Shown here: positions 8,069 to 48,415 of the stretch, piece by piece
Layout of the letters: every line of letters starts with the position of its first letter
Numbering within the stretch: the stretch's first letter is position 1
Source of the DNA: Negaprion brevirostris
Taxonomy: Eukaryota
Reading direction: 5' to 3'
DNA length: 63,288 nucleotides
Assembly (NCBI GenBank): GCA_030324005.1
Contig: JARDVH010000084.1
Span: 50,934,737 to 50,998,024, forward strand
The notes under the pieces: generated by a model
The model's input: only the letters and a program-made list of their open reading frames with translations
What the model was told of the DNA's origin: nothing
Database searches by the model: none
Position numbers and translations under genes: made by a program

Positions 8069-8222
8069 GGGTGGCGTGGTGGCACAGTGGTTAGCATTGC
8101 TGCCTTGTAGCTCCAGAAACCTGGGTTTAGTTATGGCCTTGGGTGATTATCCACGTGGAGTTTGCACTTCTTCTGAGTGGGTTTCCTCCAGATGCTTTAG
8201 CATTCTCCCACAGATTTAAAGT
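8069..8222 (+). mobile_element. HE1-type V-SINE, 5' part
   Basis: tRNA-like head (tggcacagtggttagca...gggtttag) plus V-domain gtggagtttgcac...gggtttcctcc. Confidence 0.8.
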
Positions 8223-9829: not shown

Positions 9830-11420
9830 TTCAGTCAAGGGTTGAGGTGTCGTTAGCTAGGGCAGTATTCATTGCCCATCTTAATTGCCCATAAAAAGGT
9901 GGATGTGAGCTGCCTTCTTGAACTGCTTCAGTCCGTGTGGTATAGTTAGACCCACAGTGCTGTTAGGGAGTGAATTTCAGGATTTTGTCCCAGACAAATA
10001 GGAAGGCAAGGCTATGGGGGATTTGCAAACAAGGATGAGAAGTTAAAATTAGGGCATAACNNNNNNNNNNNNNNNNNNNNNNNNNNNNNNNNNNNNNNNN
10101 NNNNNNNNNNNNNNNNNNNNNNNNNNNNNNNNNNNNNNNNNNNNNNNNNNNNNNNNNNNNAAGGCTATGGAGGATTTGCAAACAAGGATGAGAAGTTAAA
10201 ATTAGGGCATAACCAGGAGCCCATGTAGTGTCAAGGACAGGAATGATGGGGAAAACAGGATTTGAGAGTTCCTCTCAAATATATCATTGTTCCTAGTGAA
10301 GGAACAATGATATATTTCCAAGTCAGAATGAATAACTTGAAAGGGAACTTCCATGTGATCGCGGTGTTCCCATGTATCTGCTGCTGTTGTCCTTCTAGAT
10401 GGTAGTGGTCATGGGGTTTGGTAGGTGCAATCTCAAGCATCCTTTTGTAGTCCTGCACCTTATGGATGGTACACACAGTTGCTACAATGCATCAGTGATG
10501 TAGTTAGTGAATGTTATGGAAGGGATGCCAATCAAGCAGGCTGTGTTGTCCTGGGTGGTGTCAAGCTTCTTCACTGTTGTTGGGGCTGCATTCTTCCAGG
10601 CAAGTGGAGAGAATTCCATCACACTCCTGATCTGTGCCTGTAGATCGTAGACAGACCTTCTCAGGAATCAGGAGGTGAGTTGCCTACTTTGTCCCTGACC
10701 TGTTTTTATATGATTAGTCCAGTTTAATTTCTGGTCAGTGGTACCCCACAGGATGTTGATAGTGGGGGATTTCAGTGAGGATATCAAGGATGTTTTCCCC
10801 TCTTGTTAGATCCCTTACCACCTATCACAGACCCAGTCTAGCAGCACAGTGGTTAGCACTACTACTTCACAGCATCAGAATTTGGGTTCAATTCCAGCCT
10901 TGGATGACTGTCTCTGTGAAGTTTGCATATTCTCCCCATGTTTGAATAGGTTTCCTTCTGGTCCTCCAATTTCCTCTCACAGTTCAAAGATGTGTAGGTG
11001 AGGTGGATTGGGGGGGGGGGTGGGGGGGGGGGCAATGTTCTTTTGGAGAGTTGATGCACACTCAATGGGCTGGATGGCTTCTTTCTGCATAATAGATTCT
11101 GTGTCCTTTGCGACTTGACCAGCGTGGTCAGTAGTGATATTACTGAGCCATTCTTGATGATGCACCTTGAATTCCCCCACCCAGGGTATACCTGACCTGG
11201 GGCTTTGTCTGTATGGTACAATTACTGTCAGGCCATTGCTTGATTAGTCCGTGAGACAGCTCTCTCAATTTTGTTACAAGCGCCAGATATTTGTAAGGAG
11301 GACTTTGCAGAGTCAACAGAGCTGGGTTTGCCTTCTTCATTCCCAGTGCCTAGGTTGATGTCAGATTGTCTGACGGTTTCATACAATTGAGTGGCTTACT
11401 AGGCCATTTAAGAGTCCCAT
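9830..11420 (-). mobile_element. LINE 'family B' fragment containing an inverted L2 piece (9994-10275) and an HE1 SINE (about 10838-11105, + strand)
   Basis: attgcccatcttaattgccc tail shared with 5830 and 20452. SINE head agcacagtggttagcact. Confidence 0.75.
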
Positions 11421-11429
11421 ATTTCATAG

Positions 11430-11952
11430 CCACAATTCCCATCTTTGTCCTTGCAACTGTTGAGAGCTGAACCAGACTGTTCAGAATCTCAAAGTCATAT
11501 TTGATCCTGAGATGAGCTGCCGACTATATATCCACAGCTGCACTAAGCTTGCCTCTGCATCATCACTCAATTCTGTTCTTATCTCAACTCATCTGCTGAA
11601 ACACTCATCCATGTTTTTAATAGCTATGGGCTTGACTATTCCTATGCATTCCTGGCTGACATCTCACATTCAATCATTCATAAACTTGAGGCCAGCCAAA
11701 ATAGTCCTTGTCCTAACTCTCAAATTCTGTTTTCCCCATCACTCCTGTCCTTGACACTACATGGACTCCTGGTTATGCCCTAATTTTAACTTCTCATCCT
11801 TGTTTGCAAATCCTCCATAGTTTTGCCTTCCTATTTCTGTAATCTCCTCTAGGCCTCCCACTCTCCGATGTATATCTGGCTTCTTGAGCATTTCAAACTT
11901 GGGGATATGTTATAACTTTAAATCTGCTTATAAATGCAGACTGTTGTTGTAG
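11430..11952 (+). mobile_element. L2-clade LINE 3' end
   Basis: ctgctgaaacactcatccatg...cttgactattcc...ccccatcactcctgtcctt...ctacatggactcctgg (ETLIH..LDY..HITPVL..LHWLP-like) with a tgttgttg tail. Confidence 0.8.
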
Positions 11953-16880: not shown

Positions 16881-17201
16881 AAAAAAAGAGCCCCTTGTTT
16901 CCTTCACAGTCTTTAGTGAAACCTTTCCACATATATTCATAAGCTCTTTCATAATATTCATACATTTCTTTTGGAAACATTCTCCTTAAACATAGTAAGA
17001 CTAACCACTCAGATGATGAAATTCCCCACCATTAGATATGCATCTGCTTTTCAAACCAAACCTGATGATTAAATAAAACTAAAGGGTGGTAAAAGACAGA
17101 AAGAGAGACAATCCTGAGTAAATTTAGCATCCTATAAACCTCAGATAAGATGTCTCAATAGGATGCTGAGTATCTATCATTCATCTGGGTAAAATGTAGC
17201 A

Positions 17202-17460
17202 CAGTAAGAATTCTCACAACACCAGGTTAAAGTCCAGCTGGTTTATTTGGTAGCAAATGCCACTAGCTTTTGGGGCTCTGCCCCTTCGTCAGGTGAGTGG
17301 AGTGAGTCAGGTGAGTGCAGAACTCCCCACTCACCTGACGAAGGGGCAGAGCCCCAAAAGTTAGTGGCATTTGCTACCAAATAGACCTGTTGGACTTTAA
17401 CCTGGTGTTGTGAGACTTCTTACTGTGTTTATCCCAGTCCAACGCCGGCATTGCTACATC
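17202..17460. mobile_element. Penelope-like terminal-repeat fold-back insertion with hammerhead-like motifs in both arms
   Basis: About 100-bp inverted arms (17202-17299 vs 17327-17426), 13-bp TSD gtaaaaYgtagca (17189-17201 and 17461-17473), core CTGACGA-A-GGGGC-aga-GCCCC-AAAA. Confidence 0.8.
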
Positions 17461-18121
17461 GTAAAACGTAGCATACAGCTTTCTATCATTAATAAATAAA
17501 CTCCTGTCTGTCAAAGCACATGAACTGATCAAGCACACGTTTAGAGAAAGTTTGCAATGCATGCTGTTGAGTCCATAGTTTCATCCTCAGCATGGATTGG
17601 GAAAGCTGTATGATACATTTTCTAGAGGTCTTAGATTAAAAAAAAACTTATCCTTGCAAACTAGATAACATCAAATTTTTATCTTCATAGGAGAAGCCTG
17701 AATTTCCACTTTTAGGGTATATTAGGAAATGGCTGCGTGTCAACAAATAATATTGCTTTGCATCCTAAAGCAAGAACTCCACACAAATTCAGGGGATCAA
17801 GGATAAATGTTCCAGATCGACTGCTTGAACATCTGAAGTACCTCAAGTTGTTGATAAATGATTTGAAGTTTCACTTAGCATTATCAGCCTACACAAACGT
17901 TCTGGCTTAAGCTATCAGATGTAATGTCATTCAAAACTTTGTCTCATTAGGTCTTTGAAAAACATCTGGTAATTACTAATCAGCTGTGAAAAGTCATTAT
18001 GCTATTCTTTTGTCACATTTGATGTAAGTACAACTATTGAATAAGACCATGTGATTGCCATGGACAAAACTTTGAAGTATTTTAAGGCATGATTCAACAT
18101 GTCTGCCCCTATAAAAATGTA

Positions 18122-18234
18122 GTAAGAAGTCTCACAACACCAGGTTAAAGTCCAACAGGTTTATTTGCTGGCAAATGCCGCTAGCTTTTGGAGCTCTGCC
18201 CCTTCGTCAGGTGAATGGGGAGTTCCACACCATG
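18122..18234 (-). mobile_element. Penelope-like terminal-repeat fragment
   Basis: Same family as 17202; 14-bp TSD cctataaRaatRta (18108-18121 and 18235-18248). Confidence 0.75.
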
Positions 18235-18637: not shown

Positions 18638-18719
18638 GCACTAAAGAGAGATGTGCTGAACACTGTGTTTATCCGCTGTCAAATGGTATTTGAGGACCAA
18701 ATTCTGAACAAAAATGTTG
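18638..18719 (+). CDS. ODR4: ODR4-family exon (ALKRDVLNTVFIRCQMVFEDQILNKNV)
   Basis: cttttaccag| and G|gtaagt, 82 bp, phase 0 to 1. Matches recalled AVKRDILNTVADRCEMLFEDLLLN. Confidence 0.95.
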
Positions 18720-19465
18720 GTAAGTAACTGATAACCCATTGATTTCTCCCACCTTCTTTAATAATGTCAAACTCTTAACATTTTTTTTGATTGTGTGACC
18801 AGAATAATACTTAGGAATTTTAATAATTAGGGATAAGCAATAAATGCTGGCCTAGCCAGCGATGCCCATATCCCATGAATTAATGAAAAAATTTCTGATG
18901 AACAGCTGAGGTTTCTGCTTAACATTAATGTCATCAGTGAACTATTAGGCACTCCACATTTTATAAGTTTGTTGCCCTTCATTTCCCGGTATTTGATGTC
19001 CTCCTGGTATAGAAACAGACATTTAAGTAGAGTGATTTTTTTGCCATGCTCTGATGCTTAGTATAGATACTATCCCTTTTCAGCTGTAACATGCTTAATT
19101 GATGAAAGATGTGAACTTTCAACAGTAGCGAACTAGCTCTGGAATATTCCCTGACTCATTAATGAGAGGCTTGGAGGATGTCATATGGTTACTCTGCATC
19201 TAGTTCAAAATAACTCTGCAAGTCAGTGTCCCAACAGTTAATACAGCCATAGCTTACCAAGAAATGAGAAGTTTACCATCAATGTGTAGTAAATTGTGCT
19301 ATTCTAGATAATTAATCTCTAGTCAGTCTGTACAGCTTAGATATTGCCAAGCAGCTCGTATGCTGTCCAAATTCATATGAGTGTTGTGTATCTTTACTGG
19401 GAGAAATTGCCTGCTATATTTCAGTCAAGAAAAAGCTCAAACTTTGAATGTTTCTGCTATAAGAA

Positions 19466-19682
19466 GAGGGAATGCTCAGCACATTTACAGCATCAGCAGA
19501 GAGAAATTGACCAATCATTTCAGTCTATTGACCTTTTGTGAGAATTGTTCCGCTGAAAGGGTCATCAACTTGAAATGTTAATGCAGCTATTTTCTCTCCA
19601 CAAATGCTGTCCGACCTTTGAACATTTCAAGCATTTCCTGTTTTTATNNNNNNNNNCCAGCATGTGCAGTATTTTACTTCTG
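19466..19682. mobile_element. Second Penelope-like family, decayed fold-back; related fragment at about 13015-13095
   Basis: aatgctcagcac...cagcatc.gcagagagaaa is inverted against tttctctccacaaatgctg...agcattt. Degenerate core ctgaaagggtcatcaacttgaaatgtta. Confidence 0.55.
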
Positions 19683-19844
19683 AATTTCTTAGGTGATTTG
19701 GAACTCTTAAACATAGGCCTTAGTATGCATCAGACAATAGTCTAACCAGAAAAAAACAAGAATAGCATAGCCCAAAGGTATTGTTGCTGAAAATGCAGTT
19801 AGATGAATCTAGATAATTTGCAAAAAGTAAGCCATATAAAGTAT

Positions 19845-20058
19845 ATCACTTCTCCGTCTTTTGGCTAAGATCAAGCACAAGATGGGGTATAATGCCTTAT
19901 CTTGTCAGCTTGGATCTTGTTTGTCTCTCTTATAGGGAACTTGAATTGCATTAAATTGGATTTTGAATTTAGTTCTAGGAGCAATCAAAGGATGGATTTG
20001 GGTTTGCCAGTCCATTCTGAGTATTAGCTTAAGGATGGAGTGAAACAAAATTTAAAAT
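19845..20058 (+). mobile_element. U2 snRNA-derived retroposon (SINEU-like element or processed U2 pseudogene)
   Basis: Starts atcacttctccgtcttttggctaagatcaag (U2 5' end ATCGCTTCTCGGCCTTTTGGCTAAGATCAAG), continues with degenerate U2-like blocks and an A-rich end. 12-bp TSD catataRagtat (19833-19844 and 20059-20070). Confidence 0.8.
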
Positions 20059-20209
20059 CATATAGAGTATATACAGATGTTTTTAAACATGATTTAATTT
20101 ACAATACTTCTCACAATATAAAAGCACATATTTAGCTATGCTTGGGGGTGGGGGGACAGAGGAGACGGTGGTGGGGCTGCCAAGTGTGTTGGAACAGTTA
20201 GATCCCTAG

Positions 20210-23200
20210 ATAATGAGGTGTGGATGAGGATTTGAGCAGCCTGTGAGCTGAGACAGGGAAAATCAACCAGTATTACAGACGTAGAAATTAGTGCTCGTAG
20301 TGATGGTGTAAATATGAGGTCAAAAGCTCACCACAATACCAATGTGACACTAAGATTACAAACAAACTAATTTAATTCCAGCTTGTTACTAAGAAGAGGA
20401 AAGGAGTGAGTGCATAGGGAATAGTATTTGGAACGAGTACTGCAAACAATATTCTTTTAAATTCATGGGATTGGGGGATCACTGCCTAGGCTGCTATTTA
20501 TTGCCTATCCCTAATTGCCCTTGATAAGGTGTTGATCAGCTGTCTACTTGAACTGCTGCAGTCCATGTGGCGTAAGTACACCCACAGTGTTGGTAGGAGG
20601 GAGTTCCAGGATTTAATCCAGTGACAGTGAAGGAAGGGCGATATATTTCTGAGTCAGGATGGTGAATACCTTGGAGGTGAACCTCCAGGTGGTGGTGTTC
20701 CCATGTATCTGCTGTATTTGTCCTTCTCGATGGTAGTAGTCATAAGTTTGCAGAGTGCTGTCTAAGGAGGCTTAGTAAGTTCCTGGTGCCACTAAGTGCT
20801 GGTCATGAAGGAAATAATTGCCTGTGGGTGGGGTAGTAATAAAGCAGGCTGCTTGTCCTTATTGATGTCAGTTTTTTTTTATTGTTTTTGGATTTGCACT
20901 GGAAAATGTTAAGTATTCCATCATACTTCTGACAAATGTCTTTAAATGCTGGGTAGGCTTTGGGGAGATGAATTACTCACTTCAGCATTCCAAGCCTCTG
21001 AACTGTTCTTGTAGCCACATGTGGCTACTCCAGTTCCTTTTCTAGTCAATGGTAATTTCAGGATGTTAGTAGTGAGGGATTTTTGGTTGGTAATTCCACT
21101 AAATGTCATGGGACAATGGTTAAATTTTCCTTTGTTGATGAAGATGATTATTACTTGGCACTTGTGTGATGCAAACGTTACATGCCAAAGCCTGGATATT
21201 GTCTAGGTCTTGCTGCATTTGGGCGTGGACTGCTTCAATATCTGAAAGTCACGAATGGTGCTGAATAGTTTGCAGTCATCAGCAAACATCCCCACTTATC
21301 TTATGGTGAAATGAAGGTCATTAGTGAAGCAGCTGAAGATGGTTGGGCCAGGATACTATCCTGCAGCAGTGATCTCCAACCTTTTTAAATGCAAGATCAC
21401 TTTTAGAATCTAAATGCAGCACAAGATCTACCCTTAAATGTTTGACTTTACTATAATCCCCAAAAATGTATGTAGTGCACAACACCCAACTATTCTTTGT
21501 GTGACACTTCCACTTGCACACAGTCTGTGAATGCTGTGAAGTCTGAGTCGTAGTTTGAGATGGCCAGTCTCAAACAGCCCATCAGATGGACATCTATGAG
21601 ATGAGTGTGTTACGTGGCCTTGATTATTTTCATCTGGGGAAAAGCCAGAGGTATGTGGAACCAAAGTAGGCCTTCACCTTGAGCGTGCAAGATGTCAGAA
21701 GAAGGTACTTCCCTGTTTACAAGTCCTCAACAACCTTTGTCCTTTGACCTAGCTTTCATTTTGCATTGTGATGAATTCCATGCCAAGTCTACAGCTTTGT
21801 TCAAACACATGCTGTAATTTTGCTGTCAGTTCTCCAAAGACCATTTGAAGAAGAGGATTTGAGACAAATATAATGATTTGTTCCATTTGTCTACCTACAG
21901 AAATTGTCTTTTTCAGTTTGTTCAGGGGGGTCACAGAATTTGTTTGGGTGCAACACTTTCCGTTTGACCTGTTGTTGAATTTTCTCCAGATTTGGAAAGT
22001 GCTCAGTAATTTTGCTGTTTAACTGGGAGGATCACAGGCTCAGTTTTCAGTTGAATGCATTCACTGCACTGATCATGTGTGACAAGACTGTTCTTTCCCT
22101 TCAGTTCATGATTCAATTTTGCGCTAATGTCTGTAAGAAATGCGAAGTCCAGCAACTATACATTTATTTGACAGCTCATTTCTTGATTTAAGAAAGGTGA
22201 CAATTTCAGGGAGGAAATCTAAAAATCTCTGGAGGAATTTTTCCTTGATTTAATCACCTTACATCTGCCTGAAGAATTAGCTCACCCTGAGGAATTACTC
22301 ACCGTAGGTGGCCTCAAGCTCATCGAATCATGATTTGAACAAGCATTGTTGCAGAGCTTTGGCATGAATTGAGTTGACGAACTTGACAGAAACTGTCATT
22401 ACATGAGAAGAGTCAGTAACCTTGCTCACTAGCACCAGTTGGTGGTTAACACTGTGGTAATCGACAAAGAAGAAGAATTCAGGATTATTTCTGCGAAGTG
22501 CAACAAAGCCTGCATTGACACGCAGCATTGACAGTGCACCATCAGTTGTGATTGAAACCAGTTCTTTGATTGTAATGTTTTTCTCAGTCATGTACCTTCT
22601 GAATTTGTTGTAGACATACTCACCTCTTGTCTTTTTGAGTGGCAAAAGACTGAGAAACTCCTCCTTTGTTGCTGAGTCTTTGAATGTTGTGAAAAAGAAA
22701 ACAATCAGTTAGGCCATATTCACTATATCTACAGATTCATCAAACTACAGTGAGTAAGTCTCATGGTATTTGCTGAGGCTCATCCTCAGACTACAGTTCC
22801 ACCCTTCTGATTGTTAAAGCACCAAGCAGCACGCTCTTGATGACTAACATAATTTCGTTTTCGTTTTTCAAGTCTTTGACCAAGGTGTCAGCAGCAACTG
22901 TCAGAGCCTCCTTGATGACTTTGCTATTGGGTGAATGGTTCCTTATGTTTCACCAGTGGATAGCGAATGCAAAAAGACACCTCTGGGCTAGCCTTGCCCT
23001 TAGCCGCTGGTTTCAAAAAGAGTGACTGCTGAGCTTTCAAAATTCCTTTTAACTGCCCAACCTTTTTTGTATGAATCTGCTGTTTACAGGGAAATTTTCT
23101 TTTAATTTTACATGTATTGTCTTGTGACGCCATTCCAATTTGCCTCTTTTACTCTGCTACACTCTGGTGACAAATGCTGTTGTCTTTGATTAACTTGTTA

Positions 23201-24185
23201 GAAGAAATTCACGTTCCCATTCTTGCTGGAAATGGTAGGTTTTTGCCCTCTTGGTTGTCACTGGCTCCGCACTTGTCATTTTGACTTTAGGAAATTAATC
23301 TTAGCAATGTGAAAAATGGAAGGCCCTGTTTATTCTAAGGTTCAGTGCGGGTTGACAATAGGCAGTGAGCTAACAGCTGAACAATGGTCGCAGTAGTTCA
23401 TTGGTGGACGTTTAGCTCGTTTAAACATAATGAATTTCTGATTGGTCTGAGTGCCGACATTTAGCTCAGTTTTTTCTTAACTCTGCAGCACCTTGCATTA
23501 TAACCCATGGCAACCACAGAATCTGGGCTTTTCCCACTCTCTTTTATACTTTTTAAATGTTAAGATCGACTGTTTAAGACGCTAGGATCGATTTTCTTGA
23601 TTGTGGTTGACTGGTTGGAGACCACTCTTATAGTGATGTCTTGGAACTGAGATGATGGATCTCCAACAATCACAACCATTTTCTTTGTGCAAGGTATGAC
23701 TCCAACTAGCAGAGAATTTTCCCTCTGATTTCTACTGACTGCAGTTTTGCTAGGAGTCCTTGATGCCAAACCCAGTTGAATGTTGTCTTGGTGTCAAGGG
23801 CAGTCACTCTCACTTCTCCTACAATGACCTCACTGTTCCCAGTACTAATCAGAGGAAATTTTTGCACATCCAGTACTGGTTCACGGATGAGCAGTCTGAT
23901 AATTTAGCAATGGAGGAATAGTCAAAAGATGGTGATGAGGTAGAGCTGTGTGCTGTCACCTTATACATGAAAGTCAAAGCCCAACATGTAGATGAGAAAT
24001 AGGAAAGAACTAAGGATAGATCTTTGGGGATATGAGAGGTAATGGTATAAGAGATGGAAGAGTATTTCTCTGGCTATGATCAGATAACAACGCGAGAACA
24101 GACCAACTCAGCTGGATGATAATGTAGAGGATGGTGTGGTCAACAGTGTCAGAGGTTGCAGAAAGATAAGGAGAAAATGTTTATC
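20210..24185 (-). mobile_element. L2 remnant (20210-20450 and 23825-24185) split by LINE 'family B' (20452-21366 and 23628-23822)
   Basis: Each host sequence resumes collinearly after its insert (ggatactatcctgcag ... tgatgtcttggaactgagatga). Confidence 0.7.
21367..23627 (-). mobile_element. hAT DNA transposon (Charlie/SPIN-like) with pseudogenised transposase (about 23279 to 21490)
   Basis: TIRs cagtgatctccaacc (21367-21381) and ggttggagaccactc (23613-23627). Fragments MTSAEPVTTKRAKTYHFQQEWEREF, LVSITTDGALSM, DYHSVNHQ, and C-terminal HLMGCLRLAISNY; many stops and frameshifts. Confidence 0.9.
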
Positions 24186-24599
24186 TTTTTGGCCTGATTT
24201 TCATTGTTGCTGACTCCATTACATTCTTCTGCTGCAGTAGTGGACATGGTGCATATTGCTAATACTAATCATATAGGCCACTTTCATCTCTGCAGGGTCA
24301 ACCTGCCCTACTCCACTATAATTCTTGGTTGTCCATTTGCCATAGACACACCTTTAACATTATATTCTCAATAGTGTACTCTTCAAATTCCTCCTGGACT
24401 TGACCTCCATATTACCTCTGACATTAGTGGACATTAGTTTGTTGATACTCTGTCCTACCTATATAAATTTTATACAACGTGCACAAGAGCACCAACTTCC
24501 AATCAACAGTTCCTCCATTTATGTCCCTTCCGTTCTCCATTTACTACCAAGGTGTAACTTCCATAAAATCCCTACTGTGTAGAAGGGGTCTGCCCTCTT

Positions 24600-24870
24600 C
24601 TGTTTCCACTTAAACTGCTTCTGTTTCTTGTAGAATCCTCTCGCTTACCACCCCCAAAGGCTTTATCACTTCCCTATTGACCCTTTCAGCCACAAATCCC
24701 ATGCAGTTCAGATGGAACCCATCCCATTAGTACTGTTCCTTTCTGTCCTAGAACTGGTGCCAGTGTCTCGTGAAAAGGAACCCCATTTTCCCAGATCAAC
24801 CCTTTAGTCATCTGTTGATTTCCCTGATCTGTCTGCTCCAATGCCAACTTGCATATTCACTTGTTAAACA
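24600..24870 (-). mobile_element. CR1 ORF1 (SGNH esterase-like) remnant
   Basis: The reverse strand gives RQIREINR...HWHQF...WDGFHLN, typical of the CR1 ORF1 esterase. Confidence 0.6.
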
Positions 24871-25374
24871 TTCCCGAACAGTGTGAAGTGGCTGTAGGGA
24901 AAACATGTAAGATTTCAGTTTTTATAACTACAGCCATTGTGTACAAAATGAAGACCACTATACTTGGGCTTTATAAGGTTCTGGAATAACTGCACTTGGA
25001 AATTTTTGGTGCCTGCAAAATGAAGAATACTGAGTCTCTGAAAAGGGAAGGGGTCCTAATTTACCCAAGGGATGAATTTTTACCCTGATTTGGGAACAAG
25101 AACAATGTGGGAAGGCATTTAATTTAGTGCTGCCAGCCATGCTGCCAACTTGTAGTCACTGTTCTGAGTCAGTGATTTTGCTCAGAAATCTGCCTGATTC
25201 AGATTTATGGCCACTTGTTGTCAGATCACCTAGGGCCAGTTTGGAATTGTTTTGGGGAACCAAAGATTCCGTAATGATCCAAAGCAGCCCAGTGGACAGA
25301 AACAGCAACACGGTGGGAAGCGGTCATGGCCGTGCCATTCAATTAGAAATGGTGCATGGCTGAGAGATTTCATT

Positions 25375-26232
25375 TAGATCTAGATTTAGATTTGATTTAT
25401 TATTGTCACATGTATTGGCATAAAGTGAAAAATATTGTTTCTTGCACACAAAGAGTAGGAAAGGAGAAAGTGCACAATGTAGTGTTATAGTTATAGGTAG
25501 GATGTAGAGAAAGATGAGCTTAATATGAGGTAGGTCCATTTCAAAAGTCTGGTGACAGCAGAGAAGAAGCAGTTCTTGAGTCATTTGGTACGTGTCCTTG
25601 GACTTTTGTATCTTTGTCCGAACGGAAGAAGTTGGAAGAGAAAATGTTCGGGTGCATGGGGTTCTCAATTATGCTGGCTGCTTTTTCAAAGCAGCAGGAA
25701 ATGTAGACAGAGTCAATGAATGGGAGGCTGGTTTGCGTGATGAATTGGGCTTCTTTGTAGTTTCTTGCAGTCTTGGGCAGAGCAGGACCATACCAAGCTG
25801 TGATACAACCAGAAAGAATGCTTTCTATGATGCGTCTGTAAAGATTTGTGAGAGTCATAGCAGACATGCCAACTTTCCGTAGTCTCCTGAGAATGTAGCG
25901 GCGTCGTTGGGCTTTCTTAACTATAACATTGACATGGCAGTCCAGGACAGGTTGTTGGTGATCTGGACACCTAAAAATTTGAAGCTCTCGACCATTTGCA
26001 CTTTGTCCCCATTGATGTAGGCATGGGTATGTCCTCCACTGCATTTCCTGAAGTCGATGACTGTCTCCTTATTTCATTGACGTTGAGGGAGAGATTATTG
26101 TTGTCGCACCAGTTCACCAGATTCTCTATCTCTTTCCTGTACTCTGCTTCATCGTTGTTTGAGATCCAACCCACAACAGTGGTGTCATCAACAAACTTGA
26201 AAATCGAATTGATGGGGAATTTGGCCACACAG
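25375..26232 (-). mobile_element. Rex1/Babar-clade LINE, 5'-truncated
   Basis: FKFVDDTTVVGWISNNDEAEYRKEIENLVNWCDNNNLSLNV and KKAQRRRYILRRLRK...IESILSGCITAWYG; aataaatcaaatctaaa tail. Confidence 0.9.
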
Positions 26233-26589
26233 CAATTGACACACAGACACCATCATGCAAACAAAGTTAGTAATGCAACTGGTTTGTGTGTGCTCCATCA
26301 CTGGGGAGGGTTGTGAGTTTGCAAGAATCGGGATCAACAGCGGCAGGTCCCTTAAGAATTGGGACACTGAAATTTGTGCTCGGATTAAGGGAAAACTCAA
26401 ATCTCTCAACACTGCCTGCAGTGCCATGCCAGTCACTGTTCCAGTTGCTGTGCCTTGAACTTCTTCATCTCTGGCTCATTCTCAGGATCAGCAGCTGACC
26501 TTGGTGGCTTCTCTCAAGCATTGCATCTTACCTGATTTGAGAGAACTGGGAAGCTCATACAATTTCAAACAAATTAGATCTTGCAAGCA

Positions 26590-27470
26590 CAAAGACAGTA
26601 GAACGTGGCTCCATTGCTGGATTCCCATAGGTGCAGGATCTCATCACTTGAACCCATTTGACCATCAGGGTGCCAAGTGAGCAACCAGTGAGATTCATCA
26701 ACAAGAAGGGCTTCCATTCCCTAAACCTTCAACTGATACACAACAAAAGCAACATCTTTATGCATGTGTGCACTCACTCACCTTGCAGCTGCAGTTATCA
26801 GTTTGACATTTAAGTTTAAAATCTTGTACTTTGGGCTTTGATGGAAAGTAATGGTTGAAATTGGGACACCATCATAATTTTCTTTTCCTTTTACTGTTAA
26901 GAAATAATAACCTTCATACAAAGGGTAGTGGCAATCTAGGACTCTCTCCCTGAATAAAGCTTGAGGATCAGAGTTGAATAAAAATTTAAAAACAAGAACT
27001 AATGAATGTTTGTTCAGTAAGGGTAGTGAGAGTTATAGTACCAAGGCAGGTAGATGAAGAGTTATGAAACCTGGGCAAATAGGTGAAGGTAAGATACAGA
27101 TCAGTCATGATCAAAATGAATGTTGGAACATGCTCAAGGGGCTGAATGGCCTGCTCCTGTTCCTATGGATTATATAGCTTTCCTCATCCTCCAACTGTCC
27201 AAGATTTTGCAGGTCTTTATGTCACTACCAAATTCAGTGGATGAATTCTCAGGCAAGGATGAGAGATGACTATTGATCTCTTTTCGGGACCCCCTGAGAC
27301 AGAGGTGCTGCTGCCAAAGCCAACTGCATACAAGGGCCCTCAGTATGCAGGTCATCAGGCTTCTGAAGATGCAGTTCTAGTGTCTGGCCTCGTTGGGTGG
27401 CGCCCTGCTGCAAGGATCATCTGCGTTGTGGTGGTCCGCTGTGCTCTCCATAGTATGGCTGTCCAGGGAG
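26590..27470 (+). pseudogene. PIF/Harbinger transposase (HARBI1-like) remnant, split by a CR1 3' end (about 26905-27170)
   Basis: GSIAGFP*VQ, IRVPSEQPVRFINKKGFHSLNLQL, IRLLKMQF*CL..LGGAL, ARIICVVVVRCALHSMA. Confidence 0.8.
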
Positions 27471-28797
27471 CTGGACCTTAAAGAATATTAAGCATTACAT
27501 CAACCCACTTCTTTGGAGGTGGAGGAGAAAGGTACAAAACAGAACGGCACTCACGGTGTACAGGAAGTTGGCTGGAGCTAGCTCAGGAGTCAAAGCTCTG
27601 ATCAGGATGAAACAAATGCCAATGAATACCTGATCCAGGCATATTTCTCCTGAGTGTGATTCATCCAGCAGCACCATGTTCTCTGAGACTCACTTTGATC
27701 TCCCTTTCAGAACACATTAAAAAAAATGTAGCTTTAAATAGATCCATTCCTGCCACCGATGGATAATGCATGGTTTTACCATTCAAAGACTAGGGCTTCC
27801 CTTCAGCATTTCTTCCTTCATTTGCAGTCATGTTAAAGAATCAAGCTTACATACAGGGAGTGTGACTCAGCATTTCCAGTGTTATTAATACATTACAAAA
27901 TATACATTTTACAAGTGCACTGATGAATGCAGTGGCTTTCTGTCTCAGCCACTTCCACACGATCCCTCAGATGAGGCTGCTTCCATGTTGTAAACCTCTA
28001 AGACTCTACGAAATGCAAGCGTGTTTGCTTCTGGCTGTGATCCATTAGCAGTTGTCATCATCATGGAGATTGCTGCTGGTATCAATTAAGCAGTGGCCAA
28101 GGAAGCTTATGACGATGATGGTGCAATGTGAAGGTTAGCACCCCATCCTCATTGGTGACTGCCTCAGCCTTTAGATTAGCACTCTGGATTGCAGTAGGCT
28201 GCTGACCAGTCAATGCTCCAGAGCATTGCATGTATTTGTGCATGTCAATGCATTGTTCCTGCATCTGCTCCTTTTGCTGTCACACATGGCTCTTCATAAG
28301 GTTGGCCAGTTTACTCCATCCCTTCAATTACAGAATTCAATATTTTTTCACTTTCACTTCAAGGTATATATCACTCTCCTCATGTGGCATCATCCTTGGA
28401 CTATTAATCCCACCTCCTCATGTGGCTGTAATGATGATAAGCAAGGGCACCCTCCTCCACTGAATGCCTTCTCACTTGTATTCTGTGCCCTCTTTGCTTG
28501 CGAGGACTATAAAATAGAGATAAGGTAATGCTGACGTCAGCTACAAAGAATAAAATCAATTTCTCCCTTTCTTCTCTCTCTCATCACTGCCTGTACCCCA
28601 GTCTATCTATCTATATCTTTGTCATCAAACTGTTACAGTGTAATTTGGAACATAGAAATTTGCATTCTTGCTGAACTGCTGATATTTAGCATCCATTATA
28701 TTATGTACATTGCTTCATTAGATTAGGCATTGTCTCAGGTAAAGTATAACATACATGTCTCATTTAAAAATTAGTTTTATGTTCTGTTTCTCACCAG

Positions 28798-28983
28798 AGG
28801 GCGATTCTTCAAACCTCAAAGCTCCACACAGGATATTTGCCTCAGTCTTGCCTTCCAGTGTTGCTTTTTGTGATTATGGGTTTGCAGATGAGGGAAATAA
28901 GGAGCTGGAAGAACGTTATAAGGAATTGTTGGATTATGACCTAAACCCAGCACAGTTGGATAGAGTAGAAGAAGCCATGTTGG
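28798..28983 (+). CDS. ODR4: ODR4-family exon (EGDSSNLKAPHRIFASVLPSSVAFCDYGFADEGNKELEERYKELLDYDLNPAQLDRVEEAML)
   Basis: tttctcaccag| and G|gtgagt, 186 bp, phase 1-1. Matches recalled LPYRVFVPLPGSTVMLCDYKFDDE...EMLD. Confidence 0.95.
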
Positions 28984-30375: not shown

Positions 30376-31874
30376 GCCGTAACCTTTCTGTGATCCACTG
30401 GTCCCCCATGTTGTGTTATCAGGAACCATATCTAGTTTCTGGCTATAACAGGAAGGTAAAACTTAGTCAACTAAGGGAAACCTTCTATTGGAAATGATAA
30501 TGATAGTCATGCACAACAAAATATCATTTTGTGATACAAGTTTTGGCAAAATAAGGAACCTGTAGCCTTGAACAAAGTAAGTGGGAAGAGAGCAATTAAA
30601 GATGCATAGCAAGTGCAATGAAAAAAGACCTAGAGCATTATTTCAAGTTGAATAATGGCTGTAACAAGGTAGATAAAGGTACAAACTGGAGAAAGACATG
30701 TTTATAAAATAAACCTTACAAAATATCTAAAATTCTGGAAAGGAGAGACATGTCAAGATTTCTAAGGAAGAACAAGCTAGAAGACCAACTGACTTCCTTA
30801 TTTCTTCTGATCTTTGATGTGTAATATATATATATTATGCAATTTTAGATTTCTACTTCATGTTTCTTTAATTCTTTATGATCAAATGATTGGCCAAAGA
30901 TGTATGTAGTTGCGTCATTTGATAAATTGTTAACTATACAGTTAAATCTGGTTTAACTTGAACAGTTTTCGTCTTCATGCTACTTCATTCTGTAATAATT
31001 GTGTAGCGTTGTAACTATTCTGAATTGCACAGGTAGCATGTACTCATGGTTTTCTGTCTTGATAGAACTTTGTGTACTTTGTCTGAAATATATAACTTGT
31101 TCTGTGTTACAATGATTAGTATCATTGAAATTTTGCTCCCTATTTGCTGAAGTTTATTCATATATGGAGACTATCAAGTAAAATAACAATGCCCAGGGTT
31201 AGCAAAGCATTCTTGCATGATCACTTGCTCATAAGAATTGTCTTGAGTGTGGAACCATATGGTTGCATACACAGTATAAAATTATGTATGGAACCATATG
31301 GTTGCATATGTAATCTGCAGATTACAAATATAAAATTCATGTTTTGTAAAAATTTAAGATTTTTACAGCAGATCTTGTTCAGCTACAGCATTAAAGTTAG
31401 AGCTCCTTTGTTCATATAGATCTTGAACATTGGCCAGCTCCCACAACACAAAACTTAGAAATAAAGATAAGACTTTTATGGGAAACATTCATGAGGTCAC
31501 TCCTGCATTGATCTAAATACCTGTAGTAGAATTAACGATCAGCAGTTTGTTCAGAATCATAACTCTTTACNNNNNNNNNNNNNNNNNNNNNNNNNNNNNN
31601 NNNNNNNNNNNNNNNNNNNNNNGAGAATTGTTAGCCATTTAGCAATTGCTGCCTGTTCATTAAGCAGAATGCATACAATACAGCATCTATGATTGCAATT
31701 CGTAACTCCAAAATCTCCTATTGGCTTTCCAGCATCAAAAGCCATTACACTGTCCATAGTTGGATAGTGAGCTTTTCCTCTGGCCACAATTTGGCCAAGT
31801 CAGGGAAAATCATGCACGAATGCCTGTTTCCTGCACACTGCAGGCTTCTGATCCCAATTAGACCATAATGAACA

Positions 31875-33825: not shown

Positions 33826-34372
33826 AGATTTGATTTGATTCATTAGTGTCACATATGACAATACAGTGAAAAGTGTTGTTTCTTGCACATTATACAGACA
33901 AAACATACCGTTCATAGAGAAGGAAATGCGAGAGTATAGAATGTAGTGTTACGGTTATAGTTAGGGCATAAAGATCAACTTAATGCAAGCTAGGTCCATT
34001 CAAAAGTCTGATGGCAGCAAGGAAGAAGCTTTTTTGTTTCGGTTGGTACGTGACCTCAGACTTCTGTATCCATTTCCTAACGGAGGAAGGTAGAAGAAAG
34101 AATATTCAGGATGCGTGGAATTCTTAATTATGCTGGCTGCTTTGCCGAAGCAGCGGCAAGTGTAGACGGAGTCAATGGGTAGAGGGCTGGTTTGCGTGAT
34201 GGATTGGGCTATATTCACGATCTTTTGTAGTTTCTTGCAGTCTTGGGCAGAGCAGGAGCCATACCAAGCTGTGATTAAAAACCAGAAAGAATGCTTTCAA
34301 TGGTGCATCTGTAAAAGTTGGTGAGAGTAGTAGCTGACATACCAAATTTCCTTAGTCTTCTGAGAAAATAGA
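33826..34372 (-). mobile_element. Rex1/Babar LINE 3' fragment, second copy
   Basis: Homologous to 25385-25900; ORF 34000 AQSITQT.PLPIDSVYTCRCFGKAASII. Confidence 0.85.
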
Positions 34373-42009: not shown

Positions 42010-45000
42010 CCCTAATTGAGGTCATAATTGCCTCCCGAATCAGAGAACTTCATCTATATGTATATATATAATATATATACATATAGATTGTATCTGATCG
42101 ACTGGCTCTTCTGATTCTAACTTTATACCAGAAGCAGTCGTGGAGTGGAATAGAGTTTGCAAATAAAAGGAATCTGGTCAATGAATACCGGCCTCTTAGG
42201 AGTTATTTCAGTGGAGACGAGGCAGAAGAATGACCTAAAGGAACTTGTGTGCTAACAGCCGGCTTTGCTTGGGATAAGCCCTTTTTAGGCACCAAGCCTG
42301 AAACTAGATTCTTTTGACCGTGCTGTGTAGGCCCAATATGTGGAATGCATGCATTATCTTTCAAAAGTTAATGACATTGTGACAGATGAAAAGCAAATTA
42401 TCATTCTTCTAACCACTTGTGGACCATTGGCATTTGCTGTTGTTCACAGCTTAACTTTCCCAAAGGCACCAGATACTGAAACCTTCCAGGAATTGGTGGA
42501 AGCATGTGATTTTGGGGTGACGTTTAATAAAGAAACCATTTGGTATGTGGGATAAATAATACAACTATCCAAAAAAGCATGTTGGCTGAAGCCCAACTGG
42601 ACTTCAAACAGGCGCTACAGATAGCCATATCATTGGAAAATGCGGCCAGTGGTGCATGTGAGTTGTAAGGTGTCCCGATGGAAATGGACACCTACACTAA
42701 TTCGACTGAGTTCAAGAACCAACACAGAGCGCAGATGATTACATAGCCTCTGTCAGGAAGCATCTGGATACAAGGAAGCATAGGTCTGCCTGCAGTACAG
42801 CCCCATAGCAAAGCCAAGCTTTGACCACACAGACACTGTCCCTTCAGACTTCCACCCGACAAGGCATTGTAATTGTTGCCAGTGTGCAGAGCCAGANNNN
42901 NNNNNNCCAGAGCAGCACAGTAAGCCTTCAAGTTCCTCAGTTTAGGAAAATGACACATGGCCTGTATCCAGGAGAGTGCATGCCCTGGAAGATCCACCTA
43001 CATTCATCGTGGAACAATTGCACTGCATAGCAACATCCAAATTGGACCCAATTAAGATAACCATAAGATTAAATCGATGTTCTGTATTAATGGAGATCGA
43101 TGTAGGTGTGGCAATATCGGTGGTCAAAGAATCAGTGTTAAGTAATATTCACACTGGATTCCAACTAAGACTTGAGCAAGTCTGAGAACTTATACAGGGG
43201 AACCTCTAAGGGTTGTAGGTACGACATTGTTCCTGTCTTTTATGAAAGGTAACTGGTTCCATTACCATTAATGGTAGTGGAGGGTAAGGACCCAAGCCTA
43301 ATGGGGTGAAACTGATTGAGAGAAATTCGCTTGGGTTGGGTAAACATCTTCCAATTAGAAAATGGTCACTTGAGTGAAGTCCTGCCCAAATACCCAGAAG
43401 TTGCCCAAGATGGGCTGCCTGTTGAGATCTGGCTTTTAAGAGAACAAGGCACCAGCTTTGAATGTCTTAGCACGTTACAATCCTAGAAAAATGTTACTGC
43501 TAACCTACAATGTGTCTCCGTATGGCATCGGGATGGTATTGGTACATAGATGGTCAAATGGAGAGGAACGCACAATAGCATATGCCTCCAGGACCTTGGC
43601 CATAGCAGAAAGAAAGTATGCCCACATTGAAAAAGAAGGGTTGGCATTAACATTTGGAGTAAAGTATTTCTAAATGGGTGGAAATTTCTGATTGTCACTG
43701 ATTACAAGCCACTATTGGGACTTCTAGAAGAGGACAAAGCAGCGCCGCTGATAGCATCGATGGTATTCAGCAATGGACTCCATTATTGGCTGCCTACAAC
43801 TATCGGTTGAAGCAACGGTGGGAGCCTGAGTGGCAAGCGCGAGTGCCTTAAGTAGGCCAAGTTTAGCAGATGCCCACCAATGGTACCACAAGGAGAAGAG
43901 ATGGTAATGACCTTAAATTTTCTGGATACCCTTCCAGTGGCCACACGCAAAATGCGTCCTTGGACGGAAAAGACCCTGTCTTTACAAAAGTTAAACAGTT
44001 AATACTGACAGGGGAAATGGTAAGGCAGTACAGCCCCAATTCCATCCTTATTGGACTAGAAGAGAGTAGCTCATGGTAGAAGAATATTCTTTGGGGGGGG
44101 TTATTCTGAGTCAGAGCCACCATGTCATAGTGGCTGAACTACATCGCAGCCGTCCAGGAGTATCCAAAACAAAGATGTTGGCCAGAAGCTATGATTGGTG
44201 GCCTGAAATAGACATGTACGTAGCAGCATTCGTGGGTAAGTGCCAGGGATGCCAGCAAAGACAGATCTTTACCCAGAGGGTGGTGAGGGATTGGAATGCT
44301 CTGCCTGCGGCAGTTGTAAATGCGCCTAGTTTGGGGGCGTTTAAGAGATCCGTGGATAGGTTTATGGATGGAAAGGGATTGGTTTAGGTTAGAGGGTCAT
44401 TGCTTTTTAATTGGTCGGCGCAACATCGTGGGCCGAAGGGCCTGTTCTGCGCTGCAATGTTCTATGTTCTATGTTCTACATCTATAGACCCCCCTCTATC
44501 TACTCTGCCTGTTACATCCTCAAAGAATTCGAGCAAATTTGTGAAACATGATTTACCTTTCATAAAACTATGTTTACTAGGTTTAATTATATTCAGTTTT
44601 CCTAAACGACTAGTCATTTCTTCTTTGATTATTGGCTCTAGTGCATTGCCAATAATAGATGTTAAACTAACTGACTCATAGTTCCCTTCCTTCTGCCTTT
44701 CTCCTTTTTTTTCCCAATCTTTTGATGCCCTCGCCGAATTTAGAGATTTATGAAAAAATTTCAACCAATAGGTCCACTGTCTTTGAAGTGACATCCATTA
44801 AAATCCCAGAGTGCAGTTCTTTGTGTCCTGTCAATTGTCCATCTTTAGCCCTTACGTTTCTCTGATACTCTATCCCTTGTGACTGGGATTTTTGTTAGTT
44901 CTACCATGATATTTTAAATCAACCCATCTGAAAACTTTGGGATATTTCCACAGTGAAGACTGAGACAAAAAATACTATTGAGCATATCAGCTATTTCTTT

Positions 45001-47361
45001 GTTTGGTGTTATTAAATCACCGCTTTGCAACCGTGCTGCCCCAATACTCTGTCATCCCTGCCATTTATATATCCATAAAAAAATCTTATTGTTTGTTTTA
45101 GTGCTAAATGCAAGTTTTCTCTCAAAACTCATTTTCACCCCTCTTATGAGCTTCTCAGTCTTTTATTGCTGGATCCTAAAATCTTCCCAGTCGTTTGATC
45201 TTTTCTCACTTTGTATATCCTGCTTTTCACTTTAACATTATCCTTGACCTCCTTTGTTAAAAAATTTGCCTCTTTCTCGTGGAATCTCTCTTTTTGATTG
45301 GGATAAACTCTTGCTGAGCATTTTGGACCAGCTGTTTGAATATCTGCCACCGATCATCTACTAACCTGTACTTTAGCTTGTTTACCCAGTTCACCCTAGA
45401 CAACTCCTCCCTCATACCATTGTAATCGCTCTCATCTAAGTTGAAGACACTCGTGATGGACCTATGGCATTCACCTTCAAACTGTATCTGGAATTCTATC
45501 ATATTGTGGTCACTACACCCCAGAGGTTCTTTAACCACAGGATCCCTTATTAATTCATTTTCATTTACACAAAACCAAATCTAAAATAGCCCATTCCCAG
45601 TTAGGTTCCATATCATACTGCTCTAAAAAGCAATTCCCTCATGTACCCCTGATTTTTTTAAACCTTCCATTCTTGGAACTCTCCAGGAATGAATGGAGTT
45701 GCCCAATTGCTTATCATCAAGGATTTGATCACTCCATTTTTAATTAATCTTTCAAGTTCCATTTTAACACTTGGCTTAATAATGTATGGCTTAGTTCTTG
45801 CTTTTAAGCATTTTGGGTTATTATCAGGTTTTATCTTACGTTGTGACTGGACTCTGATCATTTCCCCTAAGTGAGAAGTCTCACAACACCAGGTTAAAGT
45901 CCAACAGGTTTATTTGATAGCAAAAGCTGCTCCTTCGTCAGGTGAGTGGGATTTCAGTTCACAAACAGGGCAAATNNNNNNNNNNNNNNNNNNNNNNNNN
46001 NNNNNNNNNNNNNNNNNNNNNNNNNNNNNNNNNNNNNNNNNNNNNNNNNNNNNNNNNNNNNNNNNNNNNNNNNNNTTTTAATTGGTCGGCGCAACATCGT
46101 GGACCGAAGGGCCTGTTCTGCGCTGGAGTGTTCTATGTTCTATGTTACCACCAGCAGCTCCCCTCGTTCATGGGAATGGCCAAGTAGACCATGGATGCGG
46201 CTGCACTTGGATAATGCAAAGTCATTCTTGGTCATAATGGACGCCTATTTCAAGTGGATGATTGCCCTAGGGTGCAGTTGACGACCACAACTATAACAGT
46301 AGAGAAAATTTGCACCTCATTTTGGCCACACGGGATCCCAGAGGTGTTGGCCTCTGACAATGGATTGACTTTTGCCAGCCAGGAGTTCACCCGGGTTCAT
46401 GAGGTCAAATGGGATTTGACAAATCAGGATGGCACCGTACCATCTATTGTCAAATTCAGGGAGAAAGCANNNNNNNNNNGTATCAGTGGACACCAACCTC
46501 TCCCATTGATTATAGAACAACCCCCACCCCCCAGACCACTATGGGAATAGCGTCTGCAGAATTGCTCATGGGCAGATGTCTCCCCACCAGATTATTTTTG
46601 CTCCTCCCAAACCTGGAGGGGAAGGTGAAAAAGTGACAAGAAGCCCAATACAAAGGCCATGACAATAGCAGCCAGCAGAGACAATTGGAGGCCTGTGGTA
46701 AGATCTAGGTAAAGAATTATGCCAATGGTCCTATGTAGTTACCAGGAATGGTGGACTCTAGGATGGCACCTGCATCCTACAAAATAATCAGGTGCAGGCC
46801 TCAAAATCACAGTTCGTCCTGGAGCCAACTGTGCCTAGCAGACCGAGAACTGAGGAGAGCTGTCCGGGTCAGCCAGCTCCATTTTTATGTCGCCCATCGT
46901 AAGGAACTCAAGAGTCTGAAATGGATACTGCCAATGAAGCTGAGGCTGTTCCTCTCTGCTGCGTGAGGAAGGGAGAGAACCAGAAACATGGTAACTTGTT
47001 AACTACACCCCTCCCAAGTCAGTCACTGAGTTGGAGGATGAGGATCAGGACCCAGTGCTGAAATGTCACAAGAGAGACATGAGATGCATGAACCAACAGG
47101 GTTCCCCAGACTTATGGGGAAGGGATGTAAAGGAAGCTTCAACAGGATCTATGAGGTTGGCCTCTTTGAGTATGAGCTCCTTGATTGAGGTCATAATTGC
47201 CTGCCCAACCAGGGAGCCTCCTGTGTATATAAATATGGGAGTGTCAGATCCACTGGCACTCCTGACTTTGATTTTGTACCTGAAGCACTCTAGGAGCAGA
47301 ATAGAGTTTATAATTTAAAGGAATCTGGTGAATGGATACCAACCCCTGATAAGTTATTTTA
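42010..47361 (+). mobile_element. Decayed Gypsy LTR retrotransposon: partial 5' LTR 42010-42210, 3' LTR 47126-47361
   Basis: LTR homology (attgaggtcataattgcc...aaggaatctggt...agttattt). PBS-like tggagacgagg at 42212 and PPT ggggaaggga before 47126. gag LLTTCGP; protease MEIDVGVAISV; RNase H IAYASRTL..AERKYAHIEKEGLA; integrase HxxxPG...KMLARSY.WWP...CQGC and GIPEVLASDNG. RT is largely deleted. Confidence 0.92.
44263..46147. mobile_element. Composite insert in the Gypsy integrase: CR1 3' end (+), CR1 ORF2 piece (-), Gypsy RT N-terminal piece (-), Penelope-like fragment, gap, second CR1 3' end (+)
   Basis: FTQRVVRDWNALP; SKHSFMKGKSCFTNLLEFFE; SDHNMIEF; KARTKPY..K..VKMELERL.KNGVI...SNWATP; (ttcta)n tails at about 44460 and 46130. 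Confidence 0.8.
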
Positions 47362-48099: not shown

Positions 48100-48300
48100 T
48101 ACAAAGAAGGATTCCAAGGTAACAGATGCAACACTAGAGACATTGGTTATGCAGGTGGACAGGAGAAGAGAGACTGTGATCCAATGGGGATGAGGATGCC
48201 CTCAAGAGCCACCCTCCAAAAGGAGTAGGAACAATGGTGAGGTCAGTCAATTCTAGCATCTGGCTTTAAGGTGCACCAAAAGTCGAATGACCTCACTTAG
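48100..48300 (+). pseudogene. Myb/SANT-like DNA-binding gene remnant of a Harbinger-type transposon
   Basis: SKVTDATLETLVMQVDRRRETV...GMRMPSRATLQKE*EQ...C.K.NDL, resembling the Myb-like ORF of PIF/Harbinger elements. A weaker similar remnant lies at about 36930-37045. Confidence 0.6.
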
Positions 48301-48415
48301 AATCAGTGAATTCATCTTCATATGACATCTCTAACCCACTATACCGTTAGCTATCACACAGCTCAATACACCACACACCCATTACTCAGCAACATTGCCT
48401 GATACTCAGAATTCA

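Follow-up and report, generated by a model that had tools for sequence, protein, structure and literature searches.

A U2-like element lies in an intron of ODR4

The window (the whole stretch of shark DNA that was analyzed, 63,288 nt) carries an ODR4 gene of about nine exons, which tblastn places from about 1198 to 51002 on the + strand. Within one of its introns is a 214-nt unit whose first base corresponds to nucleotide 1 of U2 snRNA.

18638..18719, + strand: upstream ODR4 exon (25/28 to 27/28 amino acids with shark ODR4 by tblastn; splice sites read from the sequence)
18720-28797, + strand: host ODR4 intron, ~10 kb, with the element in sense orientation starting 1,125 nt into it
19845-20058, + strand: U2-derived unit, 214 nt
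28798..28983, + strand: downstream ODR4 exon (Pfam PF14778; similar to ODR4 of Scyliorhinus canicula and Mustelus asterias)

The downstream exon (28800-28982) matched ODR4 at 92% in Scyliorhinus canicula, 90% in Mustelus asterias and 77-84% in other sharks and rays, and all matches in the ODR4 exon search (17/17) were from elasmobranchs. By this measure the shark host is nearest to the catsharks and houndsharks. The Pfam ODR4-like family was matched by 2/337 of the stop-free frames scanned, none of which gave an ORF or Pfam match near the element. The element itself is shorter than 500 bp, with a longest stop-free frame of 48 codons. Rfam recognized U2 at 19845-20029 with 25.6 bits (E 0.0046), below the RF00004 gathering score for a functional gene (46 bits), compared with 181-184 bits for fish-type U2. 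The gathering score was reached by no Rfam family anywhere in the 63,288-nt window.

The octamer was absent from the 300 nt upstream of the element, where the sole PSE-like core, at -233, is out of position, and the upstream sequence is unlike the promoters of the U2 loci from the GTDB scan described below. The element contains no internal A or B boxes and has two T4 runs, and ARAGORN found no tRNA in the window. For the octamer, PSE, A/B box and Sm site, the scans used what we take to be the consensus motifs. The copy in the ODR4 intron has no promoter and is probably inert, except that it would be carried along in ODR4 pre-mRNA. A stretch of pyrimidines closed by TAG (19924-19935, + strand), sense to the intron, is a possible cryptic 3' splice site.

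The flanks of the element had no match to any repeat family within the window. Several unrelated repeats are present elsewhere in it, including a broken LTR-retrotransposon pol remnant with RNase H and integrase zinc-finger Pfam matches (43440-44384, +) and the C-terminal remnant of a LINE reverse transcriptase (25544-26068, -; PF09004), of which a second copy lies at 34109-34371 (82-84%). A young dispersed repeat (17187-17429, 18105-18230, 45854-45975, 48409-48761 and 63203-63286) shows up to 92-96% between copies; two head-to-head copies form a near-palindrome at 17200-17427, an arrangement that we presume to be Penelope-like. Copies of a SINE with a tRNA-type head, presumably HE1/V-SINE, occur at 8082-8166, 10844-10976, 50322-50390, 56463-56489 and 56987-57118, in which ARAGORN finds no tRNA. 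Three long inverted-repeat pairs (54389-55075, 166 nt at 82%; 9996-11836, 106 nt at 97% and 65 nt at 95%; 47790-49949, 66 and 59 nt) are probable non-autonomous DNA transposons, and a decayed DNA-transposon-like stretch was seen by eye at about 21360-23470 (-), with no Pfam match in the frames scanned.

The element is a duplicated and remodeled U2

U2 references were obtained by scanning GTDB with a head pattern, which gave 44 matches in 42 loci, with 28 distinct sequences among them, all in eukaryote DNA inside MAG records. Three vertebrate-type genes (L002, L032 and L029, two of them scored by Rfam at 181-184 bits) served as pairwise references, and 14 loci were taken into a U2 profile, the remainder being duplicates, truncated or variant. 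These references are fish-type and not shark U2, so divergence is inflated in the variable part of the molecule, where they agree among themselves at 58-69 of 80-81 positions; U2 32-66 is invariant among the three (35/35).

19845..19878, + strand: U2 head, nt 1-34 (28/31 over nt 1-31)
19879..19908, + strand: second copy of U2 23-34 followed by U2 35-52 (12-nt tandem duplication; 20/30 ungapped)
19926..19938, + strand: weak hairpin at the U2 stem-loop IIb position (pair probability about 0.4)
19959..19966, + strand: Sm-site-like GATTTTGA at the U2 Sm-site position (presumed consensus motif)
19989..20018, + strand: hairpin at the U2 stem-loop III position (z -3.7)
20015..20047, + strand: segment colinear with U2 141-173, the 5' strand and loop of stem-loop IV (14-15/33 ungapped)

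A preliminary description of this locus had the unit starting exactly at U2 nucleotide 1 and following U2 closely for ~31 nt, and this holds: 28 of 31 positions agree, the changes being G4A, G11C and C13T, with three transitions at nt 32-34. The extra hairpin-like segment reported next is no foreign insertion but a second, tandem copy of the 12 nt at U2 23-34, and what had been called structured insertions are likewise remodeled U2. Compared with U2 23-52, 19879-19908 agrees at 20 of 30 positions and 7 of the 10 differences are transitions, and position 23 was the best offset in the whole of U2 when tested with 19879-19899. Against U2 32-62 only, the extra segment scored negatively, with 453-475 of 1000 shuffles as good, and became positive once U2 23-31 was added; without the shared AAGAT, support for the duplication is marginal (P 0.02-0.12). 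Since U2 is self-complementary there, a tandem duplication is hard to tell from an inverted one of the downstream arm. The duplicated segment carries A30G (19886) and U43A (19899). GTAGTA is lost, as had been noted, through change of the branch-point recognition sequence in place to ATAATG (19889-19894) and not through deletion.

The U2-like blocks and Sm-like site (19959-19966) named in the preliminary description are also present. Shuffles equaled the match of the middle of the element (19900-19969) to U2 32-112 in 0, 4 and 1 of 1000 cases with the three vertebrate-type genes, and in 56, 1 and 68 of 1000 with three invertebrate-type U2 sequences. In stem-loop III the homology by sequence is weak, with 6, 81 and 731 of 1000 shuffles scoring equally well. 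The segment at 20015-20047 differs from U2 141-173 by 10-12 transitions (P 0.002-0.011 on identity, 0.0002-0.0006 counting transitions), so that homology, previously thought to stop at the last of the named blocks, runs on to about U2 nt 173. Overall, the element is colinear with nt 1 to ~173 of fish-type U2, and the last ~15 nt are missing. Homology of the body to U2 is visible only in such position-anchored tests; the body alone gave no U2 match by Rfam (E<=10) or by nhmmer with the head masked. Among spliceosomal features, the branch-point recognition sequence, stem IIa and stem-loop IV are absent.

Three short blocks near the 3' end resemble U6/U6atac by eye, and a chimera was considered and rejected: there was no Rfam U6 match, and the segment is colinear with U2 141-173. 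The likeness is discounted because anything complementary to the U2 5' end resembles U6.

A target-site duplication encloses the whole unit

19833..19844, + strand: 5' target-site duplication copy, CATATAAAGTAT, reaching 19846 through a 2-nt overlap with the head
20044..20058, + strand: short A-rich end, read from the sequence
20059..20070, + strand: 3' target-site duplication copy, CATATAGAGTAT, with 1 mismatch

The 12-bp target-site duplication (TSD) first noticed around the unit was confirmed, with the two copies agreeing at 11/12 positions, or 13/14 when the first 2 nt of the U2 head are counted. When every third position of the window was used as a mock start and a repeat was sought 150-260 nt downstream, an equally good one was found at 31/18,496 starts and, among AT-rich 12-mers, at 18/4,504. 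Given this null frequency of 0.2-0.4%, the duplication is unlikely to be due to chance. A longer duplication of ~25 bp appears as a gappy local alignment and is not preferred. The nt-1 start, with its 2-nt junction overlap, was counted in favor of retroposition.

The A-rich end that had been reported is present, but it is short and impure: the tail AACAAAATTTAAAAT has 10 A in 15 nt, is broken by C and T, and is not a clear poly(A). The single insertion site lacks a TT/AAAA look. No partner LINE was identified for the element; the sole similarity to its end, at 26958-26994 (E 0.04), is AT-rich and outside any recognizable LINE end, and was rejected as a shared LINE tail. The YY1-like CAAGATGG at 19878-19885 occurs three times in the window, which is about the number expected by chance; passages in the literature quote a YY1-like motif as an L1 site, and also give a peak of 14-16 bp for the TSD lengths of full-length human L1.

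The RNA is predicted to close into a strand-specific fold

All structure described here is predicted, with registers and helices picked after inspection, and it was the head that first drew attention to the element. For the + strand the fold has an energy of -71.1 kcal/mol (z -4.9 to -5.2), and for the - strand z is -1.4. The background was 110 other 214-nt tiles of the window, skipping tiles that contain N, among which 3/220 strand-folds reached z -4.5 and 0/110 tiles had such a gap between strands. The strongest background fold (z -5.7) comes from a near-palindromic 20-mer present twice, 39 nt apart, at 31250-31310.

19868..19917, + strand: predicted 22-bp hairpin (13-bp core 19877-19889/19893-19905; core pair probabilities 0.68-1.0)

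The register of the core (U2 i+j=70) is that of the branchpoint-interacting stem-loop of U2, which pairs G25-C45 and C28-G42 (PMC13019295), and fish-type U2 20-52 adopts it unaided at -3.1. In the predicted 22-bp extension, the first duplicate pairs with the remnant of stem-loop IIa. The nine substitutions in U2 23-47 keep all 11 stem pairs closed, as did 184/200,000 random placements with the same transition ratio, and 115/40,000 random placements folded as well as the stem-loop of the element. The energy of this register shifts from -2.9 to -14.8 kcal/mol. Thus modeled, the hairpin is the branchpoint-interacting stem-loop of U2 itself, in which all mismatches have been closed, among other changes by A30G and U43A. 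These two changes were engineered in human U2 as stem-loop stabilizers, M1 and M2 respectively; in that study, little to no splicing of the reporter remained in human cells with M2 or M1/M2, M1 alone had little effect, and U43A, also in M1/M2, lowered the level of U2 RNA (PMC13019295). By analogy, a U2 locked in this hairpin may be unstable, because U43A lowered the RNA level in human cells.

At the other end, 20025-20043 is predicted to pair with 19846-19867 of the head, closing the molecule at -20.4 kcal/mol, compared with -7 to -12 for the equivalent parts of real U2. Random mutants of the U2 segment paired as well in 62/40,000 cases with the head of the element and in 1,675/40,000 with a canonical head, making the predicted pairing only modestly unusual with the canonical head. 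The three head changes add about 3 kcal/mol to the pairing, as 1.3% of random triples do, and substituting the canonical head shifts the energy of the whole molecule by 2 kcal/mol. Among 51 helix positions there are 8 G-U, 0 A-C and 1 U-U (p 0.035 from composition, for helices chosen on the + strand).

Divergence from U2 is uneven

The head agrees with U2 at 28/31 positions (90%) and the body at 89-92 of 140-141 aligned nt (63-65%). Within the invariant U2 32-66, the element agrees at 23/36 positions against 28/31 in the head (Fisher p 0.02). A uniform decay of 35% leaves a head this intact in 0.1-0.2% of trials and a TSD this intact with p 0.002, and 0/302 neutral-decay simulations folded to z -4.5, in a model that leaves out indels and inverted duplication. 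The even, structure-blind divergence expected of an ordinary U2 retropseudogene is therefore not what is seen (Fisher p 0.02 and the simulations, against fish-type references). With a head at 90%, a body at 63-65% and a nearly intact TSD, we consider it well supported, as the simplest reading and the main result, that the RNA was remodeled under structural constraint first and that the present copy was inserted later. The preliminary view that this is no one-off decayed pseudogene thus gains support from both the uneven divergence and the structure-improving substitutions.

Searches for further copies and relatives

Searches with blastn, nhmmer, a covariance model and a pattern found no second copy in the 63,288 nt, and the element is therefore not a very high-copy family. 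The covariance model (R1) was built with the element included, giving a self match of 87.6 bits by construction and a next best of 5.6 bits. The junction of the element was present in 0/42 U2-head loci of the GTDB scan. Its translations returned no candidate relatives from protein collections, and the same search was also blank for a control repeat present at least four times in the window; a single protein match among 1.84 billion, to a repetitive 517-aa protein (35% over 19 aa), was dismissed as unrelated. Searching plasmids and phages by blastn gave 0 and 1 chance matches, respectively, and snoRNA and miRNA families matched at chance level only, with a best E of 0.39 and none at gathering. 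The literature searched, which excluded subscription papers and Repbase Reports, yielded no report of a shark snRNA-derived SINE, and its main texts lacked a 17-mer specific to the element; prior cataloguing of the element is possible.

The GTDB scan contained other altered U2 sequences. In animal-type DNA within a Rubritalea MAG contig, L033:246-435 (+) is a full-length U2 variant (Rfam 150.8 bits) in which the stems are kept with compensatory changes, the Sm site is intact and the branch-point segment is replaced (AGAAAUA, with one extra base), making it by sequence a candidate U2 paralogue with altered branch-site specificity. L003, L022, L025 (two matches) and L033:696-814 all have this variant U2 head, up to about nt 63, joined to a common non-U2 body, five times in two contigs and in some cases with stacked head fragments; this repeat appears to be a SINEU-like or U2-targeting retroelement. 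In L005 and L015, U2 nt 1-41 and 1-33, respectively, run into foreign sequence, and upstream of both lies sequence almost identical to that preceding L011, an intact U2 array; they are possibly U2 genes interrupted by insertions of the Keno/Utopia type.

Comparison with known snRNA-derived elements

SINEs derived from snRNA were found in crocodilians (SINEU) and nowhere else according to Kojima 2015 (PMC4494074). There, SINEU-3 is described as the first 32 bp of U2, a ~50-bp deletion, 83 bp more of U2 and a ~40-bp unique 3' end, in about 1,600 copies, and SINEU-1 and -2 as having U1 parts or a common non-snRNA 3' half; mobilization of the Tx1 type was proposed. The shark element resembles SINEU-3 in being a short (<500 bp), wholly U2-derived monomer that retains the initial 31-32 nt of U2 while the branch-point region is lost, has an altered 3' end and internal oligo-T, lacks Pol III boxes and is flanked by a TSD. 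In contrast, SINEU-3 has the ~50-bp deletion, the ~40-bp non-U2 3' end, a poly(A) and a Mariner-N4 target, whereas the element has a 12-nt duplication with a net gain of length, colinearity to U2 ~173, an impure A-rich end and an insertion site in unremarkable intron DNA of a shark. It thus shares the SINEU features of a U2 head (28/31), short non-coding length (214 nt) and TSD, and has the architecture of none of SINEU-1, -2 or -3, judged against their description in text. By sequence it appears to work like SINEU-3, but its architecture differs and we do not file it as a SINEU-3 member. A Pol III SINE with a tRNA, 5S or 7SL head is also a poor description, as the element has no A/B box, contains two T4 runs and has no tRNA.

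Structured small RNAs derived from housekeeping RNAs, such as BC1 for ID elements and monomeric Alu, are templates for dispersed copies. Such RNAs are transcribed by Pol III from internal promoters, and no promoter of this kind is apparent in the element. An Alu analogy was also drawn for SINEU (PMC4494074).

Processed and tailless U2 retropseudogenes (PMC5322556, PMC2912911) share with the element the nt-1 start, 3' truncation, a 12-14-bp TSD and microhomology at the junction; among the vertebrates surveyed, tailless retrocopies are listed there only for therians and a lizard (PMC5322556). They are canonical U2 copies decaying evenly, whereas the element shows discordant ages for its head, body and TSD, and substitutions that favor a new fold. 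Like the element, U2 variant genes (PMC8457000) and engineered U2 (PMC13019295) have a changed branch-point sequence and branchpoint-interacting stem-loop, the engineered U2 sharing both A30G and U43A with it; expressed variants have few nucleotides changed and keep their protein-binding sites (PMC8457000). In the element, by contrast, stem IIa and stem-loop IV are lost, and its locus shows no snRNA promoter upstream.

Origin of the element

The unit is real and derives from U2, and retroposition from a previously restructured RNA is very probable; SINE status, which is defined by many dispersed copies, is plausible. We lean toward the view that the element is a LINE-mobilized copy of a spreading, splicing-dead, U2-derived master RNA that resembles SINEU-3 and evolved independently. 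A serious competitor, though one we regard as unlikely, is a single or rare retrocopy of a divergent U2 paralogue that the host maintains, with the fold selected for a cellular job as an Sm-class or hairpin RNA. Rebuilding under structural constraint before insertion fits this equally well, the exact nt-1 start implies an snRNA-type promoter, the Sm-like site and stem-loop III are retained, and the window holds a single copy. Such a paralogue would nonetheless have lost all of its spliceosomal contact surfaces (branch-point sequence, stem IIa and the stem-loop IV loop), far beyond known variants. The numerous family is favored mainly because a random 63-kb window is much likelier to hold a member of such a family, an argument from sampling and not from data.

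An old, ordinary U2 pseudogene decayed in place, its hairpins the product of local duplication and chance and its TSD lucky or unusually preserved, could account for the colinearity with U2 1-173, the transition-rich differences and the single copy. U2's own stem-loop would have given the hairpin a head start, and snRNA retrocopies, often 3'-truncated, are described as common in mammals (PMC2912911, PMC5322556). It is improbable in view of the mismatch in divergence between head, body and TSD, the simulations (184/200,000, 62/40,000 and 0/302 neutral-decay folds) and the strand-asymmetric folding; the RNA was very likely rebuilt before the copy was inserted, which sets the element apart from an ordinary decayed pseudogene. 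Slightly more improbable is remodeling after insertion into ODR4, with the copy itself a functional intron-encoded RNA (a small-RNA hairpin precursor or H/ACA-like). The sense orientation in an intron, the 22-bp hairpin, the closed ends and an ACA just past the closing helix would suit such an RNA, but the near-intact TSD argues that insertion is younger than remodeling, and no snoRNA or miRNA family rose above chance (best E 0.39). Least probable of all are three further origins taken together, namely a scar left in a U2 gene by Keno/Utopia, an older element that gained a fresh U2 head by template switching, and a MITE with inverted-repeat ends. Keno (Tx1) and Utopia insertions are described as a foreign element followed by U2 from nt 39 (PMC4640811), and the similarity break of the element falls near this site, within the disrupted U2 30-45 region. 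By this junction rule such an insertion is not supported: the added 12 nt copy U2 23-34 and not foreign DNA, no ORF, Pfam match or nt-39 junction is found in or near it, and the TSD flanks the whole unit. Recurrent addition of a U2 head is documented for SINEU-1 (PMC4494074), but here head and 3' end show co-adaptation. As in a MITE, the two ends are complementary, but they pair strand-specifically and by means of G-U pairs, and an A-rich tail comes next, within the 12-bp TSD, unlike terminal inverted repeats.

For the favored origin, a splicing-dead master RNA, the alignment shows that a copy of a U2 gene duplicated nt 23-34, mutated its branch-point sequence, diverged to 63-65% in the body and lost ~15 nt at its 3' end. 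The resulting RNA is predicted to close the branchpoint-interacting stem-loop to a 13-bp stem, or 22 bp with its extension, and to pair its 5' U6-binding region with the remodeled 3' end while keeping the Sm-like site and stem-loop III. It would then be unable to form the branch helix or to pair with U6, and for this reason could be expressed as a passenger that does not poison splicing. We infer a master at another locus that has kept its external U2-type promoter, from which Pol II would make a capped RNA; this would explain the nt-1 start, the lack of A/B boxes and the internal T4 runs. A reverse transcriptase of the L1/Tx1 type would prime on the A-rich end, in target-primed reverse transcription, and leave a duplication of 12-14 bp, and repeated copying would give a putative dispersed family.

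A more speculative proposal, which we consider doubtful, is that sharks have a "disarmed U2": an RNA maintained by the host and driven by a U2 promoter, with its stem-loop locked, its U6-pairing 5' end hidden and its Sm site kept, that has taken on a non-spliceosomal role (for example, as an Sm/SMN decoy or a small-RNA precursor) and is also the retroposon master. As a master gene it would parallel BC1 for ID elements. If the source is a conserved host gene, it would represent a new snRNA-derived RNA.

Implications for U2-derived retroposons

The transcription of SINEU without an internal promoter was left unexplained in 2015 (Kojima 2015, PMC4494074). The nt-1 start of the shark element predicts that its master sits behind a U2 promoter, and such a locus would bear directly on this question. 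A spreading U2-derived element in a shark would mean that such elements arose a second time, beyond the crocodilians. An independent origin that once more retains U2 nt 1-31 while abolishing branch-point recognition would suggest a rule, in which U2 becomes a mobile passenger only after being made harmless to splicing. In the shark, this harmlessness was seemingly reached by perfecting U2's own stem-loop, using the two substitutions that were engineered in human cells.
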